DNA of 64,000 nucleotides from Candidatus Staskawiczbacteria bacterium (GCA_026395295.1 JAPLYZ010000007.1:66518-130517); one strand, 5' to 3'. Shown: positions 6,726 to 54,086, numbered from the stretch's first letter. The notes: a model not told the origin generated them from the sequence alone. Program-made: numbers and translations.

Positions 6726-8493
6726 TTTAGAAAAAATATTAAAGCAACTGACCGATAAAGCCCACCCCGTCATACGACGGGGTGCCCCATCGAATGATGG
6801 GGCAAAATTGATTTCTACGGCTTTTGAATTCGCGACACAAGCGTATAAAGAAAAAAATAGGCTGTCCGGAGAAAATTATATTTTTCATGCCGCAAGAGTC
6901 GCCTTGATGCTCGATAAAATGAACCTTGACTCAACGACAATTGCTTTTGGAATACTCCACGACGTTTTAGACGATACTCCTACCTCTGCCAAAAAAATAG
7001 AAATAAAAGAGATTGAAAAAAAGTTCGGGAAAGAAATGGGCCACTTGGTTGAGAAAACCTCAGAGTTAAGCAGGGTGAGATATTCTCTCATAATTGGAAT
7101 GAAAGACAAAAAGGCTTTTACAAAAGAGAAAGCTGAAAATCTGAGGAGAATGTTTCTTGCAATATCTGGAGACCTGAGAGTTGTCCTAATAGAGCTTTTA
7201 TCAAGATTAGACGGGCTAAACTTGTTGCACTATCTGCCGGAAGATAAACAAAAATTATTCTCTCTTGAAACTTTACAAATTTTCGTGCCGGTGGCTAACA
7301 GACTTGGCTTGTCTGAGATAAGAAGGAAGCTTGAAGACTTAGCCTTTTCTCATCTGTTCCCGGATAGGTTCAAGTGGCTGAAAGAAAACATCAAGAGCCA
7401 GTATGAAGAACGAGAAAAATATTTGAAGAAATTTATTCCTCGGCTAAAAAAAATATTGAGAAAAGAGGGGGTAAAAATTCTCGACATAAATTACCGTGCA
7501 AAATCTTATTGGAGCGCCTATCAGAAATTAATGAAACACCAGATGAACTTTGACGAAGTCCACGACTTGCTTGCGCTAAGAATAATTACGGCCGATGTTG
7601 AGAGTTGCTACAGGGTGCTAGGCATAATACATAAGCATTTTAAACCTATATCCGAAGAAATAAACGACTACATAGCGAAACCAAAGCCCAATGGTTACCG
7701 ATCGCTGCATACAACAATTTTCTCCAATGAAAACAAGATAACTGAGATTCAGATAAGAACAGATGAAATGCACAAAGAGGCAGAGTATGGTGTTTGCGCC
7801 CACTGGTCTTACAAAGAAAAAATAGACCTCAAAAAAGAAGGAAAAAACTTTGAGTGGGTGGAATCTGTTCCGGAGTTTTGGAAAACCTTTAAAATAGACT
7901 TTTTCGCGAATCAAGTTTTTACTTTTACCCCAAGAGGAGACATTGTTGTACTTCCCAAAAATTCAACTCCAATTGATTTTGCTTATGCGGTTCATTCAGA
8001 GATTGGAAATCATTGCGAATCCGCAAAAATAGACGGAAAAATTGTCCAGCTCGATAGCATCTTAAAAAACGGAGATGTGGTGGAAATATCCATTAATAAA
8101 AATAAAATCCCGTCAAAAGATTGGATGCGGTTTGTCAGAACATCTCTTGCGAAATCACATATAAAAAAGATAACAGGAGAAGACAAACCCGGCTTCAGGT
8201 TCCCATTACCGGAATTCATAAGAAAAAGAATCACAGAATTTTCCGAAGCCTCCAAAAAAAGACAGCAGGAGAGACAAAAAGCCAAAGAAGGAACTCCAAA
8301 ACAAATATATTTGGCAGGGCAAAAAGGAATGCTGACCCACATTGCCAAATGTTGCAATCCCCAGCCCGGCGACAAGGTTAGCGGGTATCTAGCCCAAAAC
8401 AGATCCGCTGTTTTGCACAAAACATCCTGCGACAATTTCAAAAAAATAGCTGAAAAATTCCCGGGGAAAATTGTCGACGCTTCATGGCAATAG
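6715..8493 (+). CDS. rel: bifunctional (p)ppGpp synthetase/hydrolase Rel/SpoT
   Basis: HD hydrolase domain (HAARVA...HDVLDDT), RelA/SpoT synthetase domain (YRSLHTT), TGS domain. The N-terminus carries an in-frame double-hairpin repeat. Confidence 0.85.
   Translation: MSNDLEKILKQLTDKAHPVIRRGAPSNDGAKLISTAFEFATQAYKEKNRLSGENYIFHAARVALMLDKMNLDSTTIAFGILHDVLDDTPTSAKKIEIKEIEKKFGKEMGHLVEKTSELSRVRYSLIIGMKDKKAFTKEKAENLRRMFLAISGDLRVVLIELLSRLDGLNLLHYLPEDKQKLFSLETLQIFVPVANRLGLSEIRRKLEDLAFSHLFPDRFKWLKENIKSQYEEREKYLKKFIPRLKKILRKEGVKILDINYRAKSYWSAYQKLMKHQMNFDEVHDLLALRIITADVESCYRVLGIIHKHFKPISEEINDYIAKPKPNGYRSLHTTIFSNENKITEIQIRTDEMHKEAEYGVCAHWSYKEKIDLKKEGKNFEWVESVPEFWKTFKIDFFANQVFTFTPRGDIVVLPKNSTPIDFAYAVHSEIGNHCESAKIDGKIVQLDSILKNGDVVEISINKNKIPSKDWMRFVRTSLAKSHIKKITGEDKPGFRFPLPEFIRKRITEFSEASKKRQQERQKAKEGTPKQIYLAGQKGMLTHIAKCCNPQPGDKVSGYLAQNRSAVLHKTSCDNFKKIAEKFPGKIVDASWQ
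6765..6803. repeat. double-hairpin repeat element (copy A) inside rel coding sequence
   Basis: CCCCGTCATACGACGGGG + GCCCCATCGAATGATGGGGC. A related copy lies at 54045-54086 with compensatory stem changes. Confidence 0.6.
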
Positions 8494-8503
8494 GCTCGGG
8501 TAA

Positions 8504-8532
8504 TTGAAAACTGGCGAAAAACATGATAGATT
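8504..8532 (+). promoter_or_regulatory. sigma70-like promoter upstream of tRNA-Leu 5' fragment / GIY-YIG / tRNA-Leu unit
   Basis: TTGAAA -N17- TAGATT, about 9 nt before the G that starts the tRNA-like sequence at 8542. Confidence 0.35.
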
Positions 8533-8541
8533 ATAAGCAAT

Positions 8542-8605
8542 GCCGAGGTGGCGGAATTAGCAGACGCACGGGACCTGCCTGCCGGCAGGCAGGCTCAAAA
8601 TCCCG
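8542..8605 (+). other. partial duplicate of tRNA-Leu 5' half (acceptor, D-arm, anticodon stem/loop) with a 20-nt palindromic hairpin inserted in the anticodon loop
   Basis: 8542-8574 is identical to 8851-8883. A 20-nt CTGCCTGCCGGCAGGCAGGC insertion sits between loop positions 32 and 33, followed by TCAAAATCCCG. The T-arm and acceptor 3' strand are missing. Confidence 0.6.
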
Positions 8606-8613
8606 ATACGCAT

Positions 8614-8850
8614 ATGTACTATGTCTATATAATAAAAAGTGAAAAAAGGAATTATAATTACGTTGGAATTACCAACAATCCCGAGCGACGGATAAAAGAA
8701 CATAATCGAGGATATAATAGAATAACTAAGCCCTATAAACCTTTTAAAATAATATTAATTGAGAAACATTTTGATAGAACCGAAGCCAGAAAAAGAGAAA
8801 AATTTCTAAAATCTGGATATGGCAAAGAATACGTTAAAGGCATCCAATAA
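8614..8850 (+). CDS. GIY-YIG nuclease family protein (UPF0213/YhbQ-like)
   Basis: YYVYIIKSEKRNYNYVGITNNPERRIKEHN...KPFKII, a GIY-YIG motif; 78 aa from the internal ATG. The ORF-track start at 8548 lies inside the tRNA fragment. Confidence 0.8.
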   Translation: MYYVYIIKSEKRNYNYVGITNNPERRIKEHNRGYNRITKPYKPFKIILIEKHFDRTEARKREKFLKSGYGKEYVKGIQ

Positions 8851-8934
8851 GCCGAGGTGGCGGAATTAGCAGACGCACGGGACTCAAAATCCCGCGACAG
8901 CAATGTCATGAGGGTGCAACTCCCTCCCCCGGCA
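8851..8934 (+). tRNA. tRNA-Leu (anticodon CAA), type II with long variable arm
   Basis: Cloverleaf folded by hand: acceptor GCCGAGG/CCCCGGC (one A-C mismatch), anticodon loop CTCAAAA, long variable arm. The T-loop TGCAACT is non-canonical with G at position 55. Discriminator A; CCA not encoded. Confidence 0.75.
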
Positions 8935-8936
8935 CA

Positions 8937-8976
8937 ATCAAAAAGCGAGTCATCACCATTTGACCCGCTTTTTATT
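8937..8976. terminator. hairpin + T-run between tRNA-Leu and the convergent MBL-fold gene (bidirectional terminator candidate)
   Basis: AGCGAGTCA..TGACCCGCT stem followed by TTTTTATTT. Confidence 0.4.
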
Positions 8977-8983
8977 TGATTCA

Positions 8984-9751
8984 TTAAGCAGTATATTCTT
9001 CTAAAGGGTTGGGCAGGATTATTTTTAATCCGGTTGAAGGGATTGCTTCTTTTACTTTTTTCCTTGTTTCGTCATTGAACGCTCTTTTGAAGTGAGCCAA
9101 CGCCAAACATTTTACATTCTGCCTTTTTGCCATTTCAAATACATCAACAGCCGCAACGTGCCCCTTAATTCTTTGGTCAAACATATAGCATTCGTGCATT
9201 AAAATATCAGCATTTTTATAAATCTTCTCGGTCCCCTCATCAAATGGTCCGTCCCCGCTGTAACAAACAACCTTATTGCCGCCCGCCTTGCCACGAGGCA
9301 GGTCATCAATCCTGATGGCAAGATTGTAGGCTGTATGACCGGTCTTGGCAAAAGATAATTTTAAATCGTTAAACTGAATTTCCTTACCATCCTCTGCCAT
9401 TATAAAATTTATTTTAAAACCATAGCTATCTATGCCAAAGTAAGCGTGCTGGCATAATCTTTCAATGTCTGCCTTAACCTGCTCAGAACAAATTATTGCC
9501 AGATCTTTTTTTCTTTCTTCCTCAAGCATACGACCCAAAAGAGCCGGAATTCCAAACAAATGGTCAGAGTGCCTGTGGGTAATATACAAAGCGTCAACCA
9601 AAGAATGATCCTGCGTATATTTCCACAGCTGCCGGACGGCAGAATCTCCGCAATCAAGCATTAACGCGGTGTTTTCTGATAAGACTAAGTGCGAATGATT
9701 GGGGTACCTTTCGTCAAAAGCCTCCCCTGTTCCTAAAAAAATTACTTTCAT
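8984..9751 (-). CDS. MBL-fold metallo-hydrolase
   Basis: HRHSDHLFG metal-binding motif; beta-lactamase fold signature. Confidence 0.7.
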
Positions 9752-10992
9752 TTTGGTAAAGGAAATTTTTTACATAATTTTTTTATTTCTTCCCTGACTT
9801 TTTTTACCGAATTTTTATTTGAAACAACCTCGTTTATCCAGCCGGCTATTATTTTCATTTCTTTTTCTTTCATTCCTCTTGTTGTAATTGCCGGGGTGCC
9901 CATTCTAATTCCCGAAGGCTTAAAAGGCGGAGCCGGGTCAAATGGAATACTATTTTTGTTAATTGTAATTCCGGCTTCTTCTAACAAATCTTGAGCTTCC
10001 GGTCCCGCAATATTCTTATTCCTCAAATCAATCAAAATTAAATGATTATCAGTTCCTCCAGAAACCAAGTTAAATCCGTATTCTTTTAATTCTTTAGCAA
10101 GGGCTCTGGCATTTTTAACTATTTGCTTGGCATATTTTTTGAACGCCGGTGTTGAAGCCTCTTTTAGGCACACAGCAATTCCTGCAATCTGATGCATGTG
10201 AGGTCCGCCTTGTAACCCGGGAAAAATTGCTCTATCTATTTTTTTTGGCAGATCAGGGTCTTTTTCAACTCCTTTTTGAGTTACCATAATCATCCCGCCC
10301 CTTGGCCCACGCAGAGTTTTGTGAGTTGTTGTTGAAACAATGTGTACATAAGGTACCGGACTTGGGTGAGCGCCTCCTGCAACTAATCCTGCAATGTGAG
10401 CTATGTCAGCTGCCAAATAAGCTCCAACGGAATCAGCAATTTCGCCCAATCTTTTCCAATCAAAAATTCTCGAATAAGCTGTTGCTCCAACAAAAATTAA
10501 TTTCGGCTTTTTCTCTTTCGCCAATTTTTCAACCTCATCATAATTTATCAAACCGGTTTTTTCATCAACTCCATACTGGACCGAATTATAAAACTTAGCG
10601 GAAAAATTAACTTTCCAGCCATGAGTTAAATGCCCGCCCATTGGCAAAGCCATGCCCATTATAGTGTCACCAGGCTCGCAAACAGCCATATAAACCGCTG
10701 CGTTTGCCGGCGAACCAGAATAAGGCTGAACATTTACATGCGCAACGCCAAATAATTTTTTTGCCCTATCTTGGCACAAATTTTCCAAAATATCGTAATA
10801 CTTTAATCCCGCATAATATCTTTTTCCCGGGTAACCCTCTGCATATTTGTCGGTGAGCAAAGAACCCAATGCCTCCCGCACAGCCGGAGAAGAATGGTTT
10901 TCTGAAGGAATCATTTCCAGAGACGTTTTTTGCCTCTCGGTTTCCAGCTCAATTAATTTTGCCACTTGCGGGTCCTGTTTTTTTAATTTCAT
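9748..10992 (-). CDS. glyA: serine hydroxymethyltransferase
   Basis: [20 protein letters not shown]-Lys region [13 protein letters not shown]. Confidence 0.9.
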
Positions 10993-11552
10993 GGTCGTAA
11001 AATATTAATTTTATTATTCGTTAAATCTATTATGGTTGAAGACTTGTTTTCTGACAAATTACCTGCGTCGACTATTGTAATGTCTTGATTTTTAAATTGC
11101 TCTAAAATATCTGCTATTTTAACAGTGGCTGGCTCGCCCGAAATGTTAGCCGAGGTCTGGGCAATTGGTTTGCCGAACTTTTCTAAAATTAAATTCAACA
11201 GCTCATATTTTGGAATTCTAATACCAATTGTTTTGTCTTTATAAACCAATTTTGGAAGACTGCTGTTTTTAGCTTTTAAAATTACCGTATTTTTATTATC
11301 TTTCAAAAATTTTTCGTGCCTACTTTCTACAAAAGCCATCTCTTTGGCAGCCTCTATTTCCTTTACAAAAACTCCTAATGGCTTTGATTTGTCTCTTTTT
11401 TTTATTTCAAAAATTTTTTTAACAGCTTCTTCATTCTCTGCATCGCAAATCAGTCCATACACAGTGTCAGTTGGCAAGACTAAAACTGCCCCGTTTTGCA
11501 GAGCAGTAATTATTTTGCTTACATTATTTTTGTTCCCCTTTATTATTTCCAT
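10989..11552 (-). CDS. tsaC: L-threonylcarbamoyladenylate synthase (YrdC/Sua5 family)
   Basis: LPTDTVYGL...KPLGV YrdC domain. Confidence 0.8.
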
Positions 11553-12282
11553 CTTCTAAAAATTTAGACATTTTTTCGATATCCTTTGGCTCGCCAAAAT
11601 CTAACCAGTTATTATTTATTTCTATCACCCTTACCTTTTTTTCTTCAGCCAAAAGAGAAACAGCATCTGTGAGTTCATACTCTCCTCTCGGCGATTTGTT
11701 TACTTGAAAAACCTTATTAAAAATCTCATAGGTAAACTTATATAATCCTACATTTACCAAATTTCCCGCATATTCTTTGGGTTTTTCAATTATTGTCTTC
11801 AATAAATTACCTTCTGCTATTAAGACTCCGTATTTTTCTGGATTGTCGTGAACCAATCCGGCAACATAATTATAACCATCGTCAATGTTTATCGCCTTCA
11901 AGTCTTCTACTGAAAACAAATTATCGCCCGAAATAAACAAAAATTGCTCATTGCCAACAAAATTTTTAATTTCTTTCAGCATTAACGGACAAGCAGTGCC
12001 ATACTTATCTTCGGGTTTAAATTCTTTATTTTGGTCTGCAAACTTTATTGTAAACTCTCCAGACACAGGGGCCGTGTAGTTTTTGATAGATTTTTCTACC
12101 AATTCCTTTTTGTAACCTGCCACTATTATTATTTCTCTATAGCCGGCTTTGAAAAGGTTGTCTAAAACGTAAAACAAAAACGGTTTTCCACTAACTTCAA
12201 TCAGATGCTTGGGCTTATCATCAGTTAAGCTCAGCATGCGCTTTCCCCTGCCTGCGGCCGCAATTACCACTTTATTGACCAT
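11524..12282 (-). CDS. sugar-phosphate nucleotidyltransferase
   Basis: N-terminal AAGRGKRM (GxGxR) NTP-transferase motif. Confidence 0.7.
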   Translation of the reverse strand: MVNKVVIAAAGRGKRMLSLTDDKPKHLIEVSGKPFLFYVLDNLFKAGYREIIIVAGYKKELVEKSIKNYTAPVSGEFTIKFADQNKEFKPEDKYGTACPLMLKEIKNFVGNEQFLFISGDNLFSVEDLKAINIDDGYNYVAGLVHDNPEKYGVLIAEGNLLKTIIEKPKEYAGNLVNVGLYKFTYEIFNKVFQVNKSPRGEYELTDAVSLLAEEKKVRVIEINNNWLDFGEPKDIEKMSKFLEDGNNKGEQK

Positions 12283-12844
12283 ATCCTAGTTCTAATGCTT
12301 TAATATTCATTTCTCTGTATTTTTCCGGAATAACGTTTTTTATCGCTTGTAATACAGACTCTTTTTTCAATGGCATTAACTTCCTGCTTATGGCGTATCC
12401 CAAAAGGTAAACGCTGGAAAGCACTTGGTTTCCAAGTTTGTCCTTGCATATTTCTGAAGCTTTCACTAAATTCAATTTATCTTTTGGTAATTTGTTCAAC
12501 TCATCTAAAATTTCCTGCTCTTTCATAGAACCAATAAAAGGCGAGTTGAACATATTTATTAAAAATTTTGTTTGCGAGCCTGCCAATTCAACAGATCTTA
12601 AACCTTCCAAAAGTTCCTGCCCGATTACCAGGTCTGCCTGACCCTTGTAGACCAATGGAGAATAAACTTTTTTTCCAAATTTTATGTGGGCTTGGACGCT
12701 TCCTTCTCTCTGCGAAAGGCCATGAAGCTCTGAAGATTTTACGTCATAGCCATTTAAAAATGCAGACTCTGCAATAATGGCAACAAGAGTAACAATTCCT
12801 TGTCCGCCAACCCCTTTTATCAACATGTTAAAATTTTTAACCAT
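12272..12844 (-). CDS. iorB: indolepyruvate:ferredoxin oxidoreductase subunit beta (2-oxoacid:Fd oxidoreductase gamma-like)
   Basis: GVGGQGIVT motif; about 190 aa; directly downstream of iorA. Confidence 0.7.
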   Translation of the reverse strand: MVKNFNMLIKGVGGQGIVTLVAIIAESAFLNGYDVKSSELHGLSQREGSVQAHIKFGKKVYSPLVYKGQADLVIGQELLEGLRSVELAGSQTKFLINMFNSPFIGSMKEQEILDELNKLPKDKLNLVKASEICKDKLGNQVLSSVYLLGYAISRKLMPLKKESVLQAIKNVIPEKYREMNIKALELGYGQ

Positions 12845-12846
12845 AA

Positions 12847-14484
12847 TTATTCTTTAGCTGCTTGTTGGCGGCGAGCTAACAAAGCACAAATTAATTTACA
12901 AACTATTACCGACACCTCGTCTTTTTCCAAAAATTCTTTTATTGTTGCGTCCAGCTCTTTGATGTTTGAAGGGTCCAGCACTTTAACATTTTTAACTCCG
13001 CAAGCCTTGGCAATATCTGCTATTTGCAATTCCTCAGCATCTTTGCCCATTAAATTTTTGCCCATGCCCGGATTGTTCTGATGCCCGGTCATTGCAGTTA
13101 TTCTGTTATCTAAAACAATAAGTATAGGGCTTGATTTGTTGTATACTGTATTAATTAAAGCTGGTATGCCGGCATGGAAAAATGTGCCGTCACCCATTAA
13201 GCTGATAACTTTTTGCCCGGTAGCTTTACTAACGCCATGGCTTATTCCTAGTCCGGCTCCCATAGCAAATTCATAGTCTTGCGTATTGTGAGGCGGATAA
13301 CCGGCAATCATATAACAACCAATGTCTCCTCCAAATACTGCATTAGGCGCTATTCTTTTGAGCGCGGCTATTGTGTACAAATGAGGACAGCCTTGGCACA
13401 ATTTTGGATAACGTCTTGGCGCTTTTGCGATAGATGCGCTCTCCTTGCTAAGCGTAAATTTTTTGCCGGTGATTTTAGATAAAGCTAACTCAATTTTCCC
13501 TGTGTCCAACTCGCCAATAACTGGCAACAAGTCTTTGCCGAATATTTGAAGTTTCGGGTTTGCCTCTTTAGCAATGGCCTTTATTTCTTTTTCTAAATAT
13601 CCGTCCAGCTCCTCAACAATTAGAACCTTTTTCAAACCCTTGATAAACTTTGCAATTTTCTTTTCTGTCAAAGGATAGAACAACCCCAGTTTCAAAACAG
13701 GCGCGCTCAGTTGCATTTCATCTAACGCCTCTAAGGTGTGCAAATGCGCCACTCCGCTTGTGATAATTCCAAGTTGGGGGGACGTCCGACGTCCGCTTAC
13801 TTTATTTAATACCGAAGATTTTTCCGCAAAAGCGCTAATTTTTTCTGTTTTCTCCAACAACTCTGCTTTCATTTCCAGAACTCTTGGAGGCATTGTGCAA
13901 AACTGCTTTGGATTTTTGACGAAGTCACCCCGCGTAGCTTTAGCAGAGTGGGGTTCTTCAAAATCAACTATCATTTTTTGGTGGTTAACTCTTGTAGTGG
14001 TTCTTAGAATAACCGGCGTATTAAACTTTTCAGAAATTTCAAATCCAAGTTTTGTAAAATCATAACACTCCTGCGGGTCGGCGGGCTCTAACATGGGAAT
14101 ATGGCTTAAATACGCGTAAGCCCTGGAATTTTGCTCTGTCTGCGCCGAACTCCAGCATGAAGGATCATCAGCCACAACAATAACCATTGGCGCTTTAGTG
14201 CCTGTGTAGGCTAACGGCAACAAGGAATCTGAACAAACATTTATTCCAAAACTTTTCATATTTACCAGAGATTTTAATCCTGAAAAGCTCGCTCCGATAG
14301 CTGCCTCTAATGCAACTTTTTCGTTGGTTGACCACTCGGCGTAAACACCATTCTTCTCGGCGATTTTTCCAAATTCATCTCCAATTTCAGCTGAAGGACA
14401 CCCAGGATAGCCCGAGACAAATGACACCCCAGACACCAGAGCCCCTTTGACTATTGCTTCATTACCTAATAATATTTTTTTCAT
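12847..14484 (-). CDS. iorA: indolepyruvate:ferredoxin oxidoreductase subunit alpha
   Basis: Pyruvate-flavodoxin oxidoreductase N-terminus, CQGCPH, TPP-binding GDGTFFHAG...DNRITAMTGHQ. Confidence 0.8.
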   Translation of the reverse strand: MKKILLGNEAIVKGALVSGVSFVSGYPGCPSAEIGDEFGKIAEKNGVYAEWSTNEKVALEAAIGASFSGLKSLVNMKSFGINVCSDSLLPLAYTGTKAPMVIVVADDPSCWSSAQTEQNSRAYAYLSHIPMLEPADPQECYDFTKLGFEISEKFNTPVILRTTTRVNHQKMIVDFEEPHSAKATRGDFVKNPKQFCTMPPRVLEMKAELLEKTEKISAFAEKSSVLNKVSGRRTSPQLGIITSGVAHLHTLEALDEMQLSAPVLKLGLFYPLTEKKIAKFIKGLKKVLIVEELDGYLEKEIKAIAKEANPKLQIFGKDLLPVIGELDTGKIELALSKITGKKFTLSKESASIAKAPRRYPKLCQGCPHLYTIAALKRIAPNAVFGGDIGCYMIAGYPPHNTQDYEFAMGAGLGISHGVSKATGQKVISLMGDGTFFHAGIPALINTVYNKSSPILIVLDNRITAMTGHQNNPGMGKNLMGKDAEELQIADIAKACGVKNVKVLDPSNIKELDATIKEFLEKDEVSVIVCKLICALLARRQQAAKE

Positions 14485-14489
14485 ATTTC

Positions 14490-32148: not shown

Positions 32149-33147
32149 TTACTGCGAGACGAACCCCGACGCAGAGCCGAAGTTGTCGCTCGGGCTGGAC
32201 ACATCGTCCGCGCCGAACTTGGCCTCGACGCTGAAGCCGAAGTACGGAGCGTGGCCGAACCGACCATCGCAGTCATCGGAGAATTCGTCGCCGGCCATGT
32301 CCATGTCCAGCTCTTCCCAGCGAACGAGGCGTTCCGGATGAACCAGAACGATTGAGCCTCCAGCGACGCTGGTAAGGCCGTACTCGCCCTTGGTGAAAGA
32401 TTCGCGTGCGAGACCGACGCAGTATCCGCCCCAACGCTTACCGAGCTGGCAAGCCTGAATACGGAAATCGCCTTGCTGTTGGTCCCGCATCTTCTGCATA
32501 ACTTCCCGAGTGTGCTGAGAGACGCGGATGTGAGCCGCGTCAATCTGGTTTTCGCGCCAGTTCGTGAACGAACGCGATTCGGCAATCTTCTGAAAGATGA
32601 GCTGCAGCGCCCGGCAGTACATCTCGGCGGGGTCTTTGACCTCGGGAAAATACTTTCGGGATAGCGCATCCTCCCACGGAACAAGGAATGCTCCTTCCAC
32701 CCAATTAGGTAGTGCGATTTTCTGCTGCACGTCCCTGTAGTAGCGAAACGCAGGTTCGGGGTCGAACCCGGGAAAATGCCGAAGCATCACCTCTGCCTGT
32801 TGCTGCATGGATTTGGGACCCTTGTACTCGCGCGGATAGTCGTAGGCCGGCCGAACCTTCTTACCCGCGTACTTGCTCTGTGGAGCGCGATGCTCCTCTA
32901 TCCAAGTAGCGATGTGTTCGGAGAGGCCAGGCGTGTCGTTAATACGCTGAGCTTCCCCTTCTGTACCATCTGACAAGCCGGCTTTATCGTAAGCGGCTGT
33001 CACGATTGACACGAACTTGAGACCTTTCGAGTCCCGTGATGTGACTGACGGAGCCAATTTTTGCATCGGAGCCATCCTTTCTACCGCGTTAAACGCGGTT
33101 TTCAATGTGCGTGTTGCGAATGCCCCGCAACAGGGCGTCCTAAACAT
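32149..33147 (-). CDS. hypothetical protein on a GC-rich (about 58% GC) foreign-looking segment
   Basis: Sharp GC and codon-usage shift (GC3-rich codons) confined to the ORF body. Putative extended -10 TGnTATAAT at 33166-33176 (minus strand). Terminator hairpin + T-run at about 32033-32079. Start is ambiguous (33147 or 33075). No recognisable family. Confidence 0.5.
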   Translation of the reverse strand: MFRTPCCGAFATRTLKTAFNAVERMAPMQKLAPSVTSRDSKGLKFVSIVTAAYDKAGLSDGTEGEAQRINDTPGLSEHIATWIEEHRAPQSKYAGKKVRPAYDYPREYKGPKSMQQQAEVMLRHFPGFDPEPAFRYYRDVQQKIALPNWVEGAFLVPWEDALSRKYFPEVKDPAEMYCRALQLIFQKIAESRSFTNWRENQIDAAHIRVSQHTREVMQKMRDQQQGDFRIQACQLGKRWGGYCVGLARESFTKGEYGLTSVAGGSIVLVHPERLVRWEELDMDMAGDEFSDDCDGRFGHAPYFGFSVEAKFGADDVSSPSDNFGSASGFVSQ

Positions 33148-42958: not shown

Positions 42959-43405
42959 ATGAAGATATTTAGTGAAAATAAAAAAGCGGGGTTTGATTAT
43001 GAAGTCCTGGAAAGGTTTGAGGCAGGGCTGGTTTTGTTTGGCCAAGAGGTAAAATCCATAAAAACCGGACATATAAATTTATCTGGAGCTTACGTGAGTT
43101 TGGCGTCAGGCGAGCCTTTTTTGGTGGGGGTAAAAGTGCCTCCCTACCAGCCAAATAATGCCGGAGCCGGCTACAACGACGAACGTCAAAGAAAGCTTCT
43201 TCTAAACAAAAAAGAGATTGATTATTTGCAAGGAAAGACAAAAGTTAAGGGTTTTTCGCTTATACCCTTGAAAGTTTACGAAAAGAGTGGTAGGATAAAG
43301 CTCGAATTCGGATTAGCCCGCGGTAAGAAGAAATTTGATAAAAAAGAGAAAATAAAAAAGAGAGACGTGGAAAGAGAGGTTAATCGCGAATTATCAAGGG
43401 AGTGA
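42959..43405 (+). CDS. smpB: SsrA-binding protein
   Basis: FDYEVLERFEAGLVLFGQEVKS... canonical SmpB sequence. Confidence 0.9.
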   Translation: MKIFSENKKAGFDYEVLERFEAGLVLFGQEVKSIKTGHINLSGAYVSLASGEPFLVGVKVPPYQPNNAGAGYNDERQRKLLLNKKEIDYLQGKTKVKGFSLIPLKVYEKSGRIKLEFGLARGKKKFDKKEKIKKRDVEREVNRELSRE

Positions 43406-43751
43406 ATGTTTCGATGGATAGTTTTTTTGAGTAAGGCAAGTTGAGCTTTCTTGGGGCTCGTTAATATCCGGGAAAAAACATAATTGCTAATTTATTTAAC
43501 TTTAATAAGCAACCAGCGTTAGCTTTCGCTTAATGCTGCATCCTTACCGTTGACTCCTAATAAACGGACCAAGGGTGTTATATTATTAGGATAGGCATTT
43601 CATTTCTCCGGTGACTTGCCGAAACTAAGGAGATAAGGCGTTAAAAATTTTGTTAATTCTTTATTTAACGTTCGAACACCAGAATTAACTAAACTTGTAG
43701 AATTGCTTTCAAAAACTTTTCAGACGCGAGTTCAATCTCGCCACTTCCACA
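43398..43751 (+). ncRNA. ssrA: tmRNA (ssrA)
   Basis: 5' GGGAGUGAAUGUUUCGAUGG resembles the tmRNA 5' end. 3' tRNA-like end GACGCGAGTTCAATCTCGCCACTTCCA, with acceptor GGGAGTG/CACTTCC pairing. Tag ORF 43486-43533 encodes ANLFNFNKQPALAFA*. Overlaps the smpB stop codon. Confidence 0.7.
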
Positions 43752-43782
43752 CTTCGACAAACTCAGTGTAAACCAAAAAACT

Positions 43783-45196: not shown

Positions 45197-45306
45197 TTTT
45201 GCCTCCTTCTCAAATCAATAGGTGTATCATCATATCTCTTACTATCACATTTTTTGCTCTAAGTAAACAAAAAAACGCCACTGCGTCTATAATTTTTAAT
45301 TGGGCA

Positions 45307-47570: not shown

Positions 47571-47634
47571 AAACTTCTGTACTTTTTATTTAATTTTTCC
47601 CCGTCCGACTTCTAACGGGGTTCATTTTTCTAAT

Positions 47635-48279
47635 TTACGGCTCTACAACTGGTTTTTCTCCGGAAAAAATAACGAAATGACCATCTCTGGCAAAAACGTG
47701 CTTCCTTATCGAAAACAATAAAATTGCGGAGACTATCGTGAGCGCACTTACACAAATAAAAAGAGTGTGGAATCCTGCAATAGATACTAAAAGACCGCTC
47801 AGCCCCCCTGCTATGCCAGCCCCTGTGCCAATTGAAGAAGTTTCCATGCCCCATTCAAAAGCTTCTTTCCCTTTATCTATATGACGAGTGAATATGGCCA
47901 ACCAAGAAGGAAGAGTCATAGCCATGCCTGCGGCATAAATAACCTGAAGCAAATAAATGTGCCATGGCACAGTGGCAAAAGTATAACCTATTGGGATCAA
48001 TGATATTATAAACATTCCTATAATCATTGACCAAAAATCATCCTTTTCTCCGTGGTGCTTATCTAGATAAATGGCTATTGGTATTTCAAAAAATGATTTT
48101 GGTATCCAATAAAAAAGAGCAGCTAACCCTGCTATCTCTGCCGCCTGCAAGGGGTTGCCACGAGTGATGTTCTCTAAAATAAAAATTGCGAACACCGGGG
48201 ACAAAAGACCCCACCCTAAATTTATGAAAAGATCGCTTATTATTAGTGTTTTTATAACCTTGTTGATAATTTTTGCCAT
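47635..48279 (-). CDS. MFS-like membrane protein (short, about 6 TM)
   Basis: Hydrophobic 6-TM pattern, MFS-like loop; possibly a truncated transporter. Confidence 0.45.
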   Translation of the reverse strand: MAKIINKVIKTLIISDLFINLGWGLLSPVFAIFILENITRGNPLQAAEIAGLAALFYWIPKSFFEIPIAIYLDKHHGEKDDFWSMIIGMFIISLIPIGYTFATVPWHIYLLQVIYAAGMAMTLPSWLAIFTRHIDKGKEAFEWGMETSSIGTGAGIAGGLSGLLVSIAGFHTLFICVSALTIVSAILLFSIRKHVFARDGHFVIFSGEKPVVEP

Positions 48280-48363
48280 TTTTTTACTTTTAATGTTATT
48301 ACAGCATTATACTATAAAACAATTAAACAAAAAACCCCGAAAAGGGGCTTTGTGCTTGTTTCA

Positions 48364-48981
48364 CTATGGGTGGAACTTTTTAGCTATCTCATCAACGAAT
48401 TCCAAAGAAACAGGATCGTCGAAAAATTCTCTTGCCCATTCCCACCAAGGACCTTTGGGCGGATTTTTATACTTTTTATGGTATTCCATCGCCTGCAAAA
48501 AATTTTCCAACCTGTCGGCTTGTTTGAAAAATCTTCCCTCTTTTGTCAAACCTTTCTCATAATCAAGCCAAAGGTGTCTGATTTCACTGCTTAACTCCCT
48601 GGGCAAATCTTTTATAATTTTTTCTAAAGAAGCCTTTTCTTTCTTATATTTCTTTTCTTTTAATCTAGTTCTTTCCTTTTCAGACAATCTCGGCCATGTC
48701 TTCATCAACTCCTTTCTTTTCTTAGCATCTTTCGGCAGAATGGAGTCATACGGGGTTGTGTCTCCGGCATAAACTTCACAAATGTCGTGTATCAACGCAG
48801 TTTTCAGAACTCTTTCTATATTGAGTTTTTGTTTGCTACCCAAAATCCAGGCCATCAAAGATGCTCTAAAAATGTGATCGGCGATGCTCTCCGGATTTTT
48901 AATGTCATTTATCACCCATCCACGCCGGGGCATATCTTTTAGCTTGCCGACTTGATTGAAAAAATTAATTAAATCTTTCAT
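48364..48981 (-). CDS. HD-domain 5'-deoxynucleotidase-like hydrolase (YfbR-like)
   Basis: HIFRASLMAW...LIHDICEVYAGD HD motif. Confidence 0.7.
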   Translation of the reverse strand: MKDLINFFNQVGKLKDMPRRGWVINDIKNPESIADHIFRASLMAWILGSKQKLNIERVLKTALIHDICEVYAGDTTPYDSILPKDAKKRKELMKTWPRLSEKERTRLKEKKYKKEKASLEKIIKDLPRELSSEIRHLWLDYEKGLTKEGRFFKQADRLENFLQAMEYHKKYKNPPKGPWWEWAREFFDDPVSLEFVDEIAKKFHP

Positions 48982-48989
48982 TTTGGCAA

Positions 48990-49466
48990 TTAGCTAATTT
49001 CGTATTTTATGTTTTTTATTTTATATGATATTTCCACCGGCGAAGAAATAACCACCTCATCTCCAATTTTATGACCCAAAAGAGCCCTGCCAACAGGAGA
49101 CTCGTTACTAATTTTTCCCAAAGCCGGGTTTGCCTCAAGCGTTCCGACAATCAAAAACTCGTCTTTTTGCCCATCCACGGCAATTTTAACTTTCGCGCCC
49201 AGTCCAATGACTCCTTGCTTGTCTTTTGGCGGATTTTTTATTAATTCATGATGCCCCATAATATTCCCCAACTCATCAATCCTTGCCCTCAAAAAACCGA
49301 TGTCTTCCTGGAAACTTACAAACTCGGGATTTAAATCTTCTGACTCTAAAATTTTCGGCGCTTCTTGCCCTAAAGATTTTTTCCGCTCAAAATCTACAAG
49401 CTCTTCGTATTCATTTTTGAGCTCCTGCAATTTCGCCTTTGTTATGTAAAAAATTTTTCCCTCCAT
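48990..49466 (-). CDS. greA: transcription elongation factor GreA
   Basis: N-terminal coiled coil, C-terminal FKBP-like domain GKISNESPVGRALLGHKIGDEV. Confidence 0.85.
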   Translation of the reverse strand: MEGKIFYITKAKLQELKNEYEELVDFERKKSLGQEAPKILESEDLNPEFVSFQEDIGFLRARIDELGNIMGHHELIKNPPKDKQGVIGLGAKVKIAVDGQKDEFLIVGTLEANPALGKISNESPVGRALLGHKIGDEVVISSPVEISYKIKNIKYEIS

Positions 49467-49524
49467 AACATTATATTATTATCCTATATTATTCCGTGAG
49501 CTTAGAAAAGTCAACTCCCGTTTT

Positions 49525-50814
49525 TTATAACAAGGTTTTTTGCTTCAAAATTTTGCTTTTGCTTTTTAGCCTATTTCCATCTGCAAAAATTTTGATTTTT
49601 CCGTAAACTCCATCGTACCCGGGCTCAATTAAAACTTTTCCTTGTCGCATGCTTAAAACAGCTTCTGCAATCTCGGGCAAAGACTCTTTGGTGATTTCTT
49701 TTTCTGTTGATTCCAAAAGTATCTTAAATTCGCTGCCTAAAGTTTTTATCAAATTGTTGTAATGTCTCAAAACTTCTTTCCCTGCCACAGAAACTCCAAT
49801 TGACTCGGCGATTATTTCATTTAAGGGAATTAGACTTTTGAATGGAATTGCATTTTTCGGGACAAATCCTTCGGGTCTGTCAGCTAATTCCTCAACCCTG
49901 TTCAATACCCCAATTACCAGGGGCTTTGCGCATTTTGGGCAAATATTATTATATTTTTTTGATTGTTGCGGAGTCAGGCTCAAACTGCACAATCTGTGGC
50001 CATCATAGTGGTATTTTCCTTCTTCCGGAAAAAATTCCATTGTGTAAAGAAATTTTTTGCTGTCTTTAAACTTAATGGCTTCTGCAATTCCCTGATAACT
50101 TAATTCTGTGTCAAAAACATTTGCTTCCCTGCCAATTTTCTGCGGAGAATGAGCGTCGCTGTTGGAAATTAAAGTTATTTTGTCCAGTTGAGACAACCTC
50201 CAGTTCATTTTAGGGTCTGACGAAAGCCCTGTTTCAATTGCATAAATGTATTTTGTGTATTCATCAAAACATTCTTCCAAAGAATTAAATCCGGATTTTG
50301 AACCAAAAACAGCAAACCATGGCGTCCAGGCGTGAGCAGGCACCACCAGACAATTTTCATCAGCATCTAAAACAATTTTTGCCAATTCTTTTGCGTCTAA
50401 TCCTAAAATTGGTCTGCCATCTGAATGCAGGTTTCCAATTTTGTTTAATTTTTCATTTATTTTTTCAACAACTCTTACAGATGGGGCAAAAACAATAATA
50501 TGAACCTTCCTGACTTTGTTATTTTTTTTATAAATACAGCTGATTTCCGATGTGAGTAAAAATCTAGTAGCAAAATTATCATCAAATTGTCCCGCCTTTG
50601 GCGTGATCTGACTGTGGCGGGAAAAAAGACCCCGCTCAGCGGGGTTCAATTCTTTCTTTATGCTCTCAAACCATTTAGGGTGGGTAAAGTCGCCCGTGCC
50701 CAAAACTTTAATCCCCTTTATCTTCGCCCATCTGTCCAAATTTTCTAAATCCATAGACGGCGAAGTCGCCCTGGAATATTTTGAATGTATGTGAAAATCT
50801 CCAATAAACTTCAT
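49525..50814 (-). CDS. endoQ: endonuclease Q-like PHP-domain nuclease
   Basis: DFHIHSKYSRA, LGTGD, PAHAWTPW, SNSDAHSP, Zn finger CPKCAKP, PGYDGVYGKIKI. Aligns along its length with archaeal EndoQ. Confidence 0.75.
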   Translation of the reverse strand: MKFIGDFHIHSKYSRATSPSMDLENLDRWAKIKGIKVLGTGDFTHPKWFESIKKELNPAERGLFSRHSQITPKAGQFDDNFATRFLLTSEISCIYKKNNKVRKVHIIVFAPSVRVVEKINEKLNKIGNLHSDGRPILGLDAKELAKIVLDADENCLVVPAHAWTPWFAVFGSKSGFNSLEECFDEYTKYIYAIETGLSSDPKMNWRLSQLDKITLISNSDAHSPQKIGREANVFDTELSYQGIAEAIKFKDSKKFLYTMEFFPEEGKYHYDGHRLCSLSLTPQQSKKYNNICPKCAKPLVIGVLNRVEELADRPEGFVPKNAIPFKSLIPLNEIIAESIGVSVAGKEVLRHYNNLIKTLGSEFKILLESTEKEITKESLPEIAEAVLSMRQGKVLIEPGYDGVYGKIKIFADGNRLKSKSKILKQKTLL

Positions 50815-51296
50815 ACCTTTATGCTACTTTTTTCAATTAAACTTAGTATTACATGACCCAGTTCTTTTGTTTCTATCAAAAATTTTGAGTATTTGCTTTT
50901 CTGTTTAAAGTCCAGAGGCGCTTCAAATCTTAAAAAACCCTGGGCAACTTCGGCAATATCCTTGAATTGCAAACTGGGCACCAGCCAGATATAATTACCA
51001 AGCTTCTGTCCAACCTCGTCAAAATAAGCAAAAAGCATGTAAAAGTTCTTGTCGGCCTTAAAACCCTCTTGCTGAAAATCTTTTATTAAAATTTCCTCTT
51101 TAGCCGGTCCGGCGAGAATATTGATTTTTAAGTGAGCCTCCCTGCCTTTCTCCTTGTACTCTCCTCTTTTCTCTACAACTAAATCAGCTCCGAAAAGACT
51201 TTTTTCCGGCTTAAAAATCACAAGCCGTCCGTTAACCCCGGAATTAATGCAATCAATCACCTTGTCTTCTATTTCCTCTTGTATGTTGTCTGCCAT
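50811..51296 (-). CDS. hypothetical protein co-transcribed with endoQ (4-nt overlap)
   Basis: 161 aa, no recognised motif. A possible nuclease-like acidic motif (GADLVVEK) is weak. Confidence 0.3.
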   Translation of the reverse strand: MADNIQEEIEDKVIDCINSGVNGRLVIFKPEKSLFGADLVVEKRGEYKEKGREAHLKINILAGPAKEEILIKDFQQEGFKADKNFYMLFAYFDEVGQKLGNYIWLVPSLQFKDIAEVAQGFLRFEAPLDFKQKSKYSKFLIETKELGHVILSLIEKSSIKV

Positions 51297-51299
51297 ATA

Positions 51300-51602
51300 T
51301 TATATTTTGAAAACGCGATACCCTTCGTGCACCTTCTCCTTTATTTTCATACCAACTCCGTCTCCTTTCTTGCCGGACTTAACCTTTTCATGATCAATTT
51401 GAAGAGACTCAACCTCTTGTTCGAAATCTGTCTCTTGCCCGCCCACAACTCTAATTGTGTCTCCAACCTTCAACGGAGCCGACAAATCAATAACCGCCAC
51501 TTCAATCTCGGAGAAATAATGAGTAATTTTTCCTATTAATTTCCCCTCTTTATCTTTTTTTGCTATTTTTTCAATTGATTTTTTTACTATTTTCTTTACC
51601 AT
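51300..51602 (-). CDS. hypothetical small beta-barrel-like protein
   Basis: 100 aa, K-rich N-terminus; no recognised motif. Confidence 0.3.
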   Translation of the reverse strand: MVKKIVKKSIEKIAKKDKEGKLIGKITHYFSEIEVAVIDLSAPLKVGDTIRVVGGQETDFEQEVESLQIDHEKVKSGKKGDGVGMKIKEKVHEGYRVFKI

Positions 51603-51926
51603 AATTTTTTAGTTTATTTTATTAATATGACCTTTACTCTTATCTTATCACTCTATAAAAATTTTTCAAACACAAAACACCAGTTTTGACTGGTGTTCTC
51701 TGGTGAGGGGGTTAATAACCTACAACGAGTTAGTGTTTTTCCTCGAGTCTAAATTCGGACAATGAATTCAGTTATATACTTTTTTTCACCTTCGTTGCAG
51801 GCTACTGTGTCCTTGAGAATAATTCTCGCACCCCCTCATAAATGCCATTGTATTATAAAATGCCTTAATGTCAACAGGGAACAGGTTGATGAGTATTAAC
51901 CTGACATTTTTTATCCTTCCATAAAA

Positions 51927-53051
51927 TTATTTTTCCATTAAGAACAGGTATTCTTGGTGCGCGCCATCACTGTTTACCCATTCGTTTGTCCAGCGCATGT
52001 TTGCCATTACATTTTTTCTATAGTCTATCTCTATCGCTTTTAATAATTTCCCCGATTCGCTTATAATGCCATTTAGTTCTTCCTTTGTGGCTCTGCCACC
52101 AGAGCTGTATGATAATAAAATATAATGCGACTTGGTCTCTTTTATCAATCTACGCAACGCTTTCATTGCGATGAATGAACCGTCCGTATCTCTTCTAAAC
52201 TCTTCAAAAACAGAACCTGCGACTTGGTCTCTGCTGTCTTCCCTGCGATTAGCTTTTCCAAAAACAACCGGCTTATCGTGTTTTATTATTGTTGTCCAAA
52301 TATGATAATAGGAGGCATAGCGCACTCTGCTCGGCGGCATTTTTTCGTTGTTTGAACCGTATGGAGGGTCAAAATAAACGAAATCAAATTCATTATTTTT
52401 TATTGTTTCGAAGATATCTCCTCTCGTAACTTTATGCTGGTCGTTATTTACAAGCCTGTTTGGTAATTTTAAAACCATATCTTTATATGAACGAGGAGAC
52501 CATTTTGATAAATAGGCGACATAATGTCCGAGCGTACTGTCAACAGAGTCGAGGGCGCGAATTAAACTTGTAAGAATTACGCACTTATCCTCCCAATTTA
52601 AATTCAATTTTTCAATTTCGTCTCTAATAGCGTCTAATTTTCTGGTATTTTTTGCCTGAAATGGTTTTTTTTCTCCCTCTTTTCTTGCCCCATAATGCTC
52701 TGTATACCAGCCGTCGTGACCCTTCAAATTATTTAAATTGTCTATAATTTCTTGATAAAACTTATCCGGTTTTTTTGATAACAAATAGCAAGTAGCAAAA
52801 ACCTCAGACCAGGTCGAAATATCGCTCGACGTCGTGTTGTATCCTAACTTTGCGAATGCCTGAGAGACGCGAGTGGACCCGCTGAATCCATCTAAAACAT
52901 TTTTTACTCCATTCAATCCATTTAAAATTTCTACAATGTAGGGTAAAATTTTTAATTTTGAACCGGCATATTTTATCCCCTCTGTTTTTGGGGTTGCTAA
53001 AATTGTTCTCCCGTAAATATTTAATTGCCGGCTCAGTTGCTGGTTTGTCAT
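51927..53051 (-). CDS. N6-adenine DNA methyltransferase (Dam/D12 class)
   Basis: KYAGSK (motif I-like) and DPPY (motif IV). Confidence 0.8.
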   Translation of the reverse strand: MTNQQLSRQLNIYGRTILATPKTEGIKYAGSKLKILPYIVEILNGLNGVKNVLDGFSGSTRVSQAFAKLGYNTTSSDISTWSEVFATCYLLSKKPDKFYQEIIDNLNNLKGHDGWYTEHYGARKEGEKKPFQAKNTRKLDAIRDEIEKLNLNWEDKCVILTSLIRALDSVDSTLGHYVAYLSKWSPRSYKDMVLKLPNRLVNNDQHKVTRGDIFETIKNNEFDFVYFDPPYGSNNEKMPPSRVRYASYYHIWTTIIKHDKPVVFGKANRREDSRDQVAGSVFEEFRRDTDGSFIAMKALRRLIKETKSHYILLSYSSGGRATKEELNGIISESGKLLKAIEIDYRKNVMANMRWTNEWVNSDGAHQEYLFLMEK

Positions 53052-53920
53052 TTGTTAAAATTATTTTTCAATTTATCAATATCTTTCTGTAAAATTTCGC
53101 TTGCTAACTTATGACCCTCCTCTGTGCTGTTGAGCGCAAGACTAAATAATCTTACCAATATTTTATTGTGTGAATAATTTATCCATCCGTTCGTAAGCGA
53201 ATCAAAATAGAAAATGGCATTTTTGGTGTGCGTCCAAAGACCTCTTTGCAGGGCGTTAGCCGATGCTCCGCCATATCTTACCTCGCAAATATAATTCCCT
53301 TGGTTATCTAAAAACATAAAAATTGGGTGCTTCCTTCCTTTGCCGGCGACCACTTTATTCAAATTTTTATCAAATTTTTGTTTTTTATCAATGAAAATAA
53401 TCCTGTCAGTTTTCTGCGCCGCTTTTTTATTATCAAAAATTATTATATTGCAAATCTGCTTTTTTTCGTTATAAATAAGGGGCATAACGTTTATTGAACC
53501 AAAATCTTTAAATTCTTCTGATTTAAAAATTGCCTCAATCTGTTTCTTGCCCTTGATGTCCTTCCCCTGTTTCATCAGGAAAGGAAACATTTTCTGTTCG
53601 CTATCTGTTGAAAGTTGCAATGGTCCGTCTCCATACGCCTTCAAGCTTATGGGAAATTCAGCTTTTGTAATTTCATTTATAATCATAATGTCTTCTTCGT
53701 GCTCTTTAGCCCTGAATAAATCCTTGCCCACATGAATACTTTTATAGTCATACATAAACTGATTTATAAACTCAGCAATGCCGATTTCTGCCAAATCGCC
53801 GTGGGTTTTATTTCCTATTAGTCGCATTGTAAAAATATTAGATAAAGTATTTATTACTAATTTATGATTTTTACTCGCCAATAGTTTAAACCTATTTTTA
53901 AATTCTTCGTATTCTTTCAT
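53048..53920 (-). CDS. putative type II restriction endonuclease (cognate of the adjacent methyltransferase)
   Basis: 4-nt overlap with the MTase gene; 290 aa. No family assignable by eye. Confidence 0.45.
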   Translation of the reverse strand: MKEYEEFKNRFKLLASKNHKLVINTLSNIFTMRLIGNKTHGDLAEIGIAEFINQFMYDYKSIHVGKDLFRAKEHEEDIMIINEITKAEFPISLKAYGDGPLQLSTDSEQKMFPFLMKQGKDIKGKKQIEAIFKSEEFKDFGSINVMPLIYNEKKQICNIIIFDNKKAAQKTDRIIFIDKKQKFDKNLNKVVAGKGRKHPIFMFLDNQGNYICEVRYGGASANALQRGLWTHTKNAIFYFDSLTNGWINYSHNKILVRLFSLALNSTEEGHKLASEILQKDIDKLKNNFNK

Positions 53921-54044
53921 ATTTTTTTATTTAAAATATATTACTTTATTCTATCCCTAAAAAAGAGCGCTTTCAAGCCCGACGCCATTCGGGTCAAAAG
54001 CGTCGCATCTGACCCGAATCATCTTTAAAACAAACCTGTGCCCT

Positions 54045-54086
54045 CAACAGGAATCGCCCAGTCATACGACTGGGCGCCCTATCGTA
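54045..54086. repeat. double-hairpin repeat element (copy B), intergenic next to tRNA-Arg
   Basis: GCCCAGTCATACGACTGGGC + GCCCTATCGTATGATGGGGC. Compensatory G-to-A / C-to-T changes relative to copy A preserve the first stem. Confidence 0.6.

Follow-up and report, generated by a model that had tools for sequence, protein, structure and literature searches.

How does a GC-rich double hairpin of 42 nt come to lie in frame within an essential gene and, in nearly the same form, beside a tRNA gene of the same AT-rich genome? The question is raised by 64,000 nt of Candidatus Staskawiczbacteria DNA (GCA_026395295.1 JAPLYZ010000007.1:66518-130517; hereafter the window), which comes from a metagenome-assembled genome of an ultra-small bacterium of the Parcubacteria within the candidate phyla radiation (CPR), and in which an initial annotation had pointed to two such sequences, one inside rel and one next to tRNA-Arg. 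The element has the form CG-CCCCGTC ATAC GACGGGG-CG-CCCCATC GAAT GATGGGG-CG (consensus, CGCCCCGTCATACGACGGGGCGCCCCATCGAATGATGGGGCG). Its 38-nt core consists of two 18-nt hairpins and a joining dinucleotide, with a complementary dinucleotide on either side; each hairpin has up to 9 bp and a 4-nt loop, a central YG dinucleotide is common to both, and the second hairpin resembles the reverse complement of the first (reverse-strand model matches, 49-64 bits). The ends, CGCCCC..GGGGCG, are inverted repeats, and the GC content is about 70%, in a window of 38% GC that ranges from 35 to 46%. We argue that the element is probably a miniature, non-autonomous, GC-rich palindromic mobile DNA, present at low copy number and shared horizontally among AT-rich CPR genomes.

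Copy A (6763-6804, forward strand; 74.7 bits in the covariance model) has the sequence CA-CCCCGTCATACGACGGGG-TG-CCCCATCGAATGATGGGG-CA and is read in frame as codons 17-30 of rel, encoding HPVIRRGAPSNDGA, as the initial annotation had noticed for a slightly shorter extent. Copy B, CG-CCCAGTCATACGACTGGG-CG-CCCTATCGTATGATGGGG-CG, is intergenic and begins and ends at 54055 and 54096 on the forward strand (74.6 bits), 8 nt from the 3′ end of tRNA-Arg; its position beside that gene had been recognized, while the coordinates first given for it, 54045-54086, are about 10 nt too low. The second hairpin of this copy contains a T.G wobble (GCCCT/GGGGC), which the initial annotation had not recorded. The proposed architecture of two hairpins holds, with stems that are longer than originally drawn (9 bp per hairpin), and the compensatory stem change is real, although it replaces C:G by A:T (CCCC/GGGG versus CCCA/TGGG) and is not the G-to-A and C-to-T pair that had been described. 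A further compensation had passed unnoticed, namely that the outer pairs of copy A read CA..TG..CA where those of copy B read CG..CG..CG. A 35-nt degenerate pattern matched the window exactly twice, at A and B, and never in 100 shuffles, and the covariance model recovered both copies with E-values of about 1e-16 each. Folded as DNA, copy A reaches −18.6 kcal/mol (z, −5.5) and copy B −15.0 kcal/mol (z, −4.3). Besides these two, the only match of the model in the window was a weak candidate for a solo-hairpin relative at 56881-56902, TG-CCCCGTC AGCC GACAGGG-CG, which lies in a Mur-ligase open reading frame (ORF), was also picked up by a hairpin scan and scored 29.9 bits (E, 1e-5) over 56876-56933. 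The same 592-aa Rel with copy A is found on contigs of at least six independent sequencing runs, which rules out that this copy is an assembly artefact; samples with the organism of the window include SRR20698651, SRR20698638, and ERR15302187.

With the additional copies described below, eight sequences could be aligned, and their structure proved to be under constraint, as had been proposed from the first two. All copies fold as two adjacent hairpins when treated as DNA (z, −3.5 to −7.7). In the alignment 94.5% of the cells are paired and 8 of the 16 stem pairs have changed on both sides, a combination reached by none of 500 shuffles; pair 9-20 alone occurs in four states (CG, AU, GC, and UA). 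When the partners were slid against each other as a control, pairing dropped to 27-48%. A single long hairpin joining hairpin 1 to hairpin 2 was also considered and rejected, as its pairing of 79.7% was equalled or exceeded by 383 of the 500 shuffles. These results show that each hairpin is individually maintained by selection, which points to a single-stranded or cruciform form of the DNA that would be recognized during formation or movement of the element. Co-variation extends to the terminal and central dinucleotides, which are CG/CG/CG in copy B and in two of the additional copies (L001 and L009), CA/TG/CA in copy A, and TG/CA/TG in another (L010c); this can equally be explained by transitions at CG dinucleotides combined with selection for 9-bp stems.

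The places occupied by the element are empty in relatives. The host gene of copy A, rel (6715-8493, forward strand), codes for a RelA/SpoT-family protein of 592 aa with HD, synthetase and TGS domains (Pfam HD_4 at residues 36-199, RelA_SpoT at 261-369, and TGS at 402-458), so the segment contributed by the element, residues 17-30, is N-terminal to the HD domain, which begins at residue 36. All of the 119 best orthologues (68-80% identity; mostly 576-578 aa against 592 aa) lack this segment, and comparison among them shows that the insertion site lies in an N-terminal stretch where a 4-residue indel is found as well. The closest relative shares the gene order HisS...TopA-rel...tRNA-Leu, and the covariance model found no copy in its 21.7-kb syntenic rel locus. 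Relative to orthologues of the QLTD type the net change in rel is +33 nt, and relative to the common 577-aa form it is +45 nt; the 5′ DNA of the closest orthologue is too diverged for the alignment to fix the insertion junctions.

A similar picture emerges at the second site. The tRNA-Arg(CCG) gene (54105-54178, reverse strand; detected by ARAGORN and scoring 67.4 bits with the Rfam tRNA model) has its 3′ end at 54105, adjoining copy B, and relatives share with the window the gene for the presenilin-like protease SPP followed within 4 nt by this tRNA. Past the tRNA, the three relatives whose SPP-tRNA-Arg loci were compared have unrelated sequence and other genes, with neither the element nor restriction-modification genes. 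In the window, copy B stands at the edge of a variable region that does carry restriction-modification genes: at 51927-53920 (reverse strand) a D12-class adenine methyltransferase is accompanied by a 290-aa ORF that has no Pfam match and is possibly the restriction enzyme. Since the region downstream of tRNA-Arg differs among the window and the three relatives (L027, L028, and L029), its comparison suggests a hot spot for islands. Altogether, about 60 kb of relatives' DNA, including the syntenic rel and tRNA-Arg loci, yielded no copy of the element, and we conclude that the copies sit where relatives have none.

The flank of copy B deserves a separate comment. At 54035-54054 (reverse strand) the tRNA-sense strand reads ATTCCTGTTGAGGGCACAGG and then TTTGTTTT, a sequence that is unique in the window. 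Together with the GGTTCG on the opposite side of the element it might represent a T-loop divided by the element (GGTTCG|ATTCC) along with a fragment of a tRNA 3′ end, but it might as well be a small terminator-like hairpin (CCTGT..ACAGG followed by a T-run), and the sequence is ambiguous between the two. A definite assignment as a tRNA 3′ fragment was therefore downgraded after a scan showed that the same flank forms this small terminator-like hairpin.

Further copies were found elsewhere, and with the lack of the segment in Rel orthologues, both checks suggested in the initial annotation gave a favorable outcome. We ran an exact-pattern scan over one genome per species, for 185,579 species, and one scan of metagenomes, using patterns that fixed GTCATACGAC and ATGATGG and left the covarying positions free; the hits were extended with the covariance model. 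Six copies in three other CPR-like contigs were added in this manner, which brings the total to eight, and copies of different genomes are 80-95% identical. The assemblies concerned are that of the window (locus tags NT155_), GCA_964373925.1, GCA_003589615.1 with its relative GCA_049325535.1, and contig Ga0247841_10000646. The sole true copy in the species-representative scan (L001) follows a tRNA-Ser, while the metagenome scan gave two contigs, L009 and L010. On L009 the element is located between two pilin genes, some 22 nt past a stop codon. On L010 it occurs around a tRNA-Ser, where the covariance model revealed two degenerate copies beside the first (L010a, L010b, and L010c). The model also detected a diverged copy in additional DNA of the L009 organism (L034), inside the NAD-dependent DNA ligase gene ligA, where it codes for ANPVIRPGAPFIAGA, within the linker that connects HhH and BRCT domains. 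The consensus is free of stop codons in four of its six frames, and both coding copies use one and the same frame; the peptides expected from translation through the element are HPVIRRGAPSNDGA in rel and NPVIRPGAPFIAGA in ligA. Three pattern scans of a viral collection returned chance matches without stems, a single hairpin in a high-GC coding region (L008 and L020), or nothing. A peptide search for in-frame copies, with the translations of the four open frames combined in a single query, brought up no candidate sharing enough 5-residue words to be informative. The contig of the L001 copy (CAYJWS010000003.1, L001/L032) is labelled "uncultured Gammaproteobacteria" and has about 40% GC; it contains several small T4SS_pilin-like genes in a row and, next to the tRNA-Ser, a small GIY-YIG gene. 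Since this gene content resembles that of CPR, the contig was possibly misbinned or mislabelled.

The sites of insertion have much in common. When the sequences are read in the forward orientation of the element, the base preceding it is T in six of seven copies, in all seven the base following it is A, and the next base is again A in six, which defines an nT-CG...CG-AA context. On L010, a 5′ half left over from tRNA-Ser(CGA) contains one element in its anticodon loop: the sequence CTCT-CG-AAAAGC of the intact tRNA-Ser genes in L010 and in the related complete genome L011 corresponds to CTCT-CA-[38 nt]-CG-AAAAGC in this half, which is thus longer by a net 40 nt. The L001 element, in turn, is preceded by GAGTTCG and followed by CGAATCCCTCCCTCTCCGATTTT, which is an exact 23-nt repeat of the 3′ end of the adjacent intact tRNA-Ser, with its first bases in the T-loop (CG|AATCC). 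The same GTTCG/GTTCA...A(A/T/G)TCC context surrounds copies B, L010b, and L010c. Comparison of the L010 and L001 sites with intact paralogues shows that the flanks belong to the target, and the same two comparisons, one in an anticodon loop (L010a) and one in a T-loop, suggest that 2 nt are duplicated. From the eight copies and these two comparisons, insertion would appear to take place at nTCGAA-type sites with duplication of the central 2 nt. Both the T-loop of tRNAs, GGTTCGAATCC, and the anticodon loop of tRNA-Ser(CGA), CTCGAAAA, contain such a motif, a match that may be the reason why several copies are in dead tRNA fragments beside intact tRNA genes, and insertion into tRNA loops would seem to be tolerated only in such dead fragments. 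The window contains 46 unoccupied TCGAA/TTCGA sites and shows no CpG depletion; with so many target sites unoccupied, the activity of the element must be low. Downstream of tRNA-Ser, L010 (356-480) has stacked degenerate hairpin elements and fragments resembling tRNA 3′ ends, and at the corresponding place L011 (3792-3880) carries other hairpins, TCTGAGA..TCTCAGA and ACTCG..CGAGT.

Taken together, the observations are best explained by a mobile palindromic element, and the steps of its spread can be sketched as follows. A single-stranded or cruciform form would be recognized while the element is produced or moved, and insertion would occur at an nTCGAA-type site, with the central 2 nt duplicated. 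Within a gene, a copy would survive only if the net change preserves the frame, if it is read in a stop-free frame (one of four), and if the 13-15 extra residues fall in a tolerant linker, such as the segment before the HD domain in rel or the HhH-BRCT linker in ligA. The two coding copies show part of this rule of survival, and we infer the rest. As a gain of 40 nt breaks the reading frame, the coding copies must have had accompanying indels. Two candidate enzymes may be considered, namely the small GIY-YIG nucleases found in cassettes at tRNA genes, whose relatives cut with a 2-nt stagger, and a Y1/HUH transposase of the IS200/IS605-RAYT type, a class of enzymes that recognizes flanks by pairing with internal guide bases. 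For SegB, a homing endonuclease related to the former, mostly 2-nt 3′ overhangs are reported (PMC2330249).

Several points weigh against this explanation. No transposase or integrase was found among the roughly 25 ORFs of the window that were scanned. The conserved T..AA flanks could be the element's own, apart from the two paralogue comparisons, and the L010c locus differs from its counterpart in L011 by 67-70 nt and not by a clean 40 nt. Forty nucleotides are not a multiple of three, so that the rel copy needs an accompanying indel whose exact junctions are not reconstructable. The searches fixed GTCATACGAC and ATGATGG, and the conservation of these two strings in five copies is thus partly a matter of ascertainment. 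The copy number is low, with two (perhaps three) copies in 64 kb, one in the scan of 185,579 species, and two contigs in the metagenome scan, and for the organism of the window it is based on 64 kb plus a few kb of sequence. Finally, no strain-level polymorphism for presence or absence was seen at the L010 locus, where six contigs from the population are identical.

The frequent association with tRNA genes calls for a closer look at the GIY-YIG cassettes inserted in tRNA genes in the window, L030, L031, L010, and L001, which consist of the native promoter with a leftover 5′ tRNA piece that in every case contains a GC-rich palindrome, a GIY-YIG ORF, and an intact tRNA. The window contains one at 8544-8935, directly after rel: a leftover half of tRNA-Leu (8544-8606) duplicates nt 1-44 of tRNA-Leu(CAA) and has a 20-nt palindrome, CTGCCTGCCGGCAGGCAGGC, in its anticodon loop (8574-8593), a 78-aa GIY-YIG ORF follows at 8614-8850, and the intact tRNA-Leu at 8851-8935 closes the cassette. 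The closest relative has a plain tRNA-Leu at this place, with no GIY-YIG cassette. The same layout was found in L030 and L031, where related CCTGCC..GGCAGG palindromes occupy other positions of the leftover tRNA piece. On L010, it is the double hairpin that takes the place of the CCTGCC..GGCAGG palindrome in the leftover 5′ half of the tRNA, upstream of a GIY-YIG ORF, and a GIY-YIG ORF is also located directly upstream of the tRNA-Ser of L001. The family is abundant, with 4973 clusters (50% identity) at E ≤ 0.001, and many of its members as called have N-terminal extensions that resemble translated tRNA halves plus palindromes.

In view of these arrangements, the double hairpin could be a module at the boundaries or junctions of larger mobile DNA that targets tRNA genes (GIY-YIG cassettes or integrative islands) and not be mobile on its own; it would be carried along, or be formed or required at sites of recombination or cleavage, and its presence in rel, ligA, and the pilin spacer would reflect rare secondary events. 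We regard this as rather unlikely, even though five of the eight copies (B, L001, L010a, L010b, and L010c) abut tRNA genes or fragments, the L010 element replaces the palindrome present in three tRNA-Leu cassettes (that of the window at 8574-8593, and those of L030 and L031), the tRNA-Ser of L001 has its GIY-YIG ORF immediately upstream, and copy B marks the edge of a region that differs among relatives and includes restriction-modification genes in the window. Copies B and L001 also have TAATG(A)G before the element in common. Nevertheless, no tRNA fragment or GIY-YIG gene accompanies the copies of rel, ligA, and the pilin spacer, neither the tRNA-Arg 3′ end nor the flank of copy B is directly repeated elsewhere in the window, and, apart from the element, just 5-15 nt separate an intact tRNA from the "displaced" fragment, unlike the remains of an integrated island. 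A classical tRNA-integrating island with a distal direct repeat was rejected on these grounds, no second tRNA-Arg 3′ end or copy B flank being present in the window. A more elaborate version of the connection, in which the double hairpin and the other GC-rich palindromes of these genomes serve as substrates of the small GIY-YIG nucleases that abound in CPR, or arise as their products, is a speculative proposal that we think improbable. According to it, the nuclease would cut DNA that encodes tRNA loops (TTCGAA in tRNA genes) with a 2-nt stagger, the hairpin would be inserted or copied there, and the central dinucleotide would pair with the flanking dinucleotide as a 2-nt guide.

It could also be asked whether the element is a functional motif of the host, such as an RNA stabilizer, a processing site, a terminator-like hairpin, or a protein-binding site, kept for its function in RNA or DNA. 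In its favor, the covariation that preserves both hairpins is strong, tolerance of T.G wobble (in two pairs) is confined to the forward strand, the L009 copy closely follows a stop codon between pilin genes, and copy B lies in the 3′ trailer of tRNA-Arg, with one hairpin flagged as terminator-like by a simple scan. That flag, however, is due solely to the Ts of the flank ATTCCTGTTG, and the real T-run belongs to another, small hairpin; the element itself has no T-run after it, since the forward flank is AAA or AAC in all copies, and two copies are inside ORFs, so that the element does not qualify as an intrinsic terminator. Against a host function also speak its location within the coding sequence of rel and ligA, its occurrence in both orientations with respect to transcription (forward in rel, ligA, and the pilin spacer, and reverse after tRNA-Arg and tRNA-Ser), and its absence from the orthologous positions of all relatives examined. 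No family of Rfam 15 matched the element at threshold, the best being CRISPR-DR9 with 18.4 bits against a gathering threshold of 45, and over the whole window only tRNA and tmRNA passed the gathering thresholds. We therefore see little prospect for a host motif. As for coincidental or convergent similarity, or an artefact of assembly or sequencing, it could be brought up that copies are few and that single hairpin-like matches do arise by chance in high-GC phage contigs (L008 and L020), but the lack of any match in the 100 shuffled windows, the E-values of the model, and the presence of near-identical copies in independent assemblies from different studies leave this explanation with practically no weight.

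Having weighed these alternatives, we return to the mobile element and to the known systems that it resembles. Its closest analogues would be the GC clusters of mitochondria, the double-hairpin elements of Allomyces, REPINs, and the Rickettsia palindromic elements (RPEs). Paquin and colleagues are said to have described, in 2000, mitochondrial elements of Allomyces that consist of two adjacent hairpins and were inferred to be mobile. GC42 of yeast mitochondria, a palindromic GC cluster, is likewise 42 nt long, duplicates 2 nt (AG) of its target site, and has hairpin stems under selection (PMC4478555). Like the GC clusters, the element is a GC-rich palindromic unit of about 40 nt in an AT-rich genome and has a constrained hairpin structure, and like both the clusters and the Allomyces elements it encodes no transposase. 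The organellar elements, however, occur in tens to hundreds of copies and appear to be unrelated in sequence, whereas ours is bacterial, belongs to CPR, is low in copy number, is distributed across different genomes, shows an apparent CG duplication at nTCGAA, and recurs in tRNA loops. Its context in the window is that of a bacterial chromosome, with rel, topA, tRNA, and tmRNA genes.

Among bacterial elements, Ogata and colleagues reportedly described, in 2000, palindromic elements of Rickettsia that lie in frame in genes, including essential ones, where the added peptide is tolerated. These RPEs, which are discussed in PMC3733652, share with the copies in rel and ligA the in-frame insertion of a palindrome into genes of a small AT-rich genome, but they measure about 100-150 nt, are restricted to Rickettsia, and are unrelated in sequence, whereas the element described here has 42 nt, adds 13-15 residues, and resides in Staskawiczbacteria. 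A REPIN consists of two inverted REPs that are moved by RAYT transposases, and REPs carry a terminal GTAG or CGTC tag (PMC3733652); some REPs are located inside genes (PMC3733652; see also PMC3337134). The element is likewise a short, imperfect, non-autonomous palindrome arranged as an inverted doublet. It lacks the terminal tag, CGTC being present only inside the stem of hairpin 1; its hairpins abut without a spacer in 42 nt, as opposed to roughly 70-110 nt in REPINs; and it is low-copy and spread across genomes, while REPINs are typically lineage-bound, with tens to hundreds of mostly extragenic copies in comparison with the two, perhaps three, in our 64 kb. No RAYT or Y1 transposase was found among the ORFs scanned in the window or in the other DNA obtained. 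The inverted-repeat ends are reminiscent of miniature inverted-repeat transposable elements, with the reservation that the 2-nt duplication comes from paralogue comparisons, with no clean orthologous empty site; a longer element with the same ends, which could be a parent insertion sequence, was not seen in any locus obtained. IS200/IS605 elements and their miniatures also form hairpins in the single strand, and in IS608 the cleavage and target sites are recognized because guide bases inside the element pair with them; in our element, the terminal and flanking bases co-vary with the internal dinucleotide. IS200/IS605 elements, however, insert 3′ of a 4-5-nt site without duplicating the target, and no TnpA was seen here. 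The element thus works like GC clusters, Allomyces elements, REPINs, and RPEs, yet it cannot be assigned to any of these families. In the literature searched we found no description of elements resembling REPs, miniature inverted-repeat transposable elements, or GC clusters in CPR/Patescibacteria.

The double hairpin is not the only small GC-rich structure found within reading frames in this region, which agrees with the suggestion of the initial annotation that small structured repeats can reside in frame in essential ORFs. At the solo-hairpin site, the Mur ligase has 5 aa more than that of the closest relative (ESALSADGANSRHQ versus -----AEKAGPEAK), and in the MBL-fold ORF at 8984-9751 (reverse strand) a hairpin at 9283-9300, CCTTGCCACGAGGCAGG, coincides with 7 additional aa (LPRGKAG) with respect to the 81%-identical orthologue of the closest relative. 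The Mur ligase gene of that relative (L027) has, around 628-660, a different in-frame double hairpin, CCCGCCTCGGGCGGG-ATCCCGCTATGGCGGGAT, encoding PPRAGSRYGG, and around 720-750 a run of CTAAACC-like heptamers encoding PKPLTLNP; both segments are missing from the orthologue in the window.

A few other features of the window may be mentioned. Between the stop codon of the methyltransferase and the next ORF, at about 51660-51860 (reverse strand), some 200 nt of non-coding sequence have long ends that are complementary to each other (GAGGGGGTGCGAG ... CCCCCTCACC), a promoter of ttgaca/tataat-like sequence, and, at the terminus, a hairpin with a T-run; no Rfam family reached its threshold on this stretch. 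The tmRNA gene at 43398-43752 (forward strand; 109 bits with Rfam) comes directly after smpB (42959-43405) and was not reported by ARAGORN. The only markedly GC-richer stretch (46% versus about 38%) harbors a 332-aa ORF at 32149-33147 (reverse strand) to which no Pfam family could be assigned.

If the element is mobile as proposed, the streamlined genomes of CPR carry miniature palindromic mobile DNA that is common to different lineages, that reshapes tRNA loci, and that can extend essential proteins, Rel and DNA ligase among them, by short peptides. This bears on the origin of indels in CPR proteins, on gene calling, where spurious N-terminal extensions and odd inserts would be expected, and on the abundance of small GIY-YIG genes in these organisms. 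Should the nucleases themselves be involved in the way outlined above, they would constitute, along with the hairpins, a previously undescribed system of mobility by which tRNA loci are remodelled and essential proteins occasionally gain a peptide. In either case, the element would be a bacterial counterpart to the mitochondrial GC clusters.

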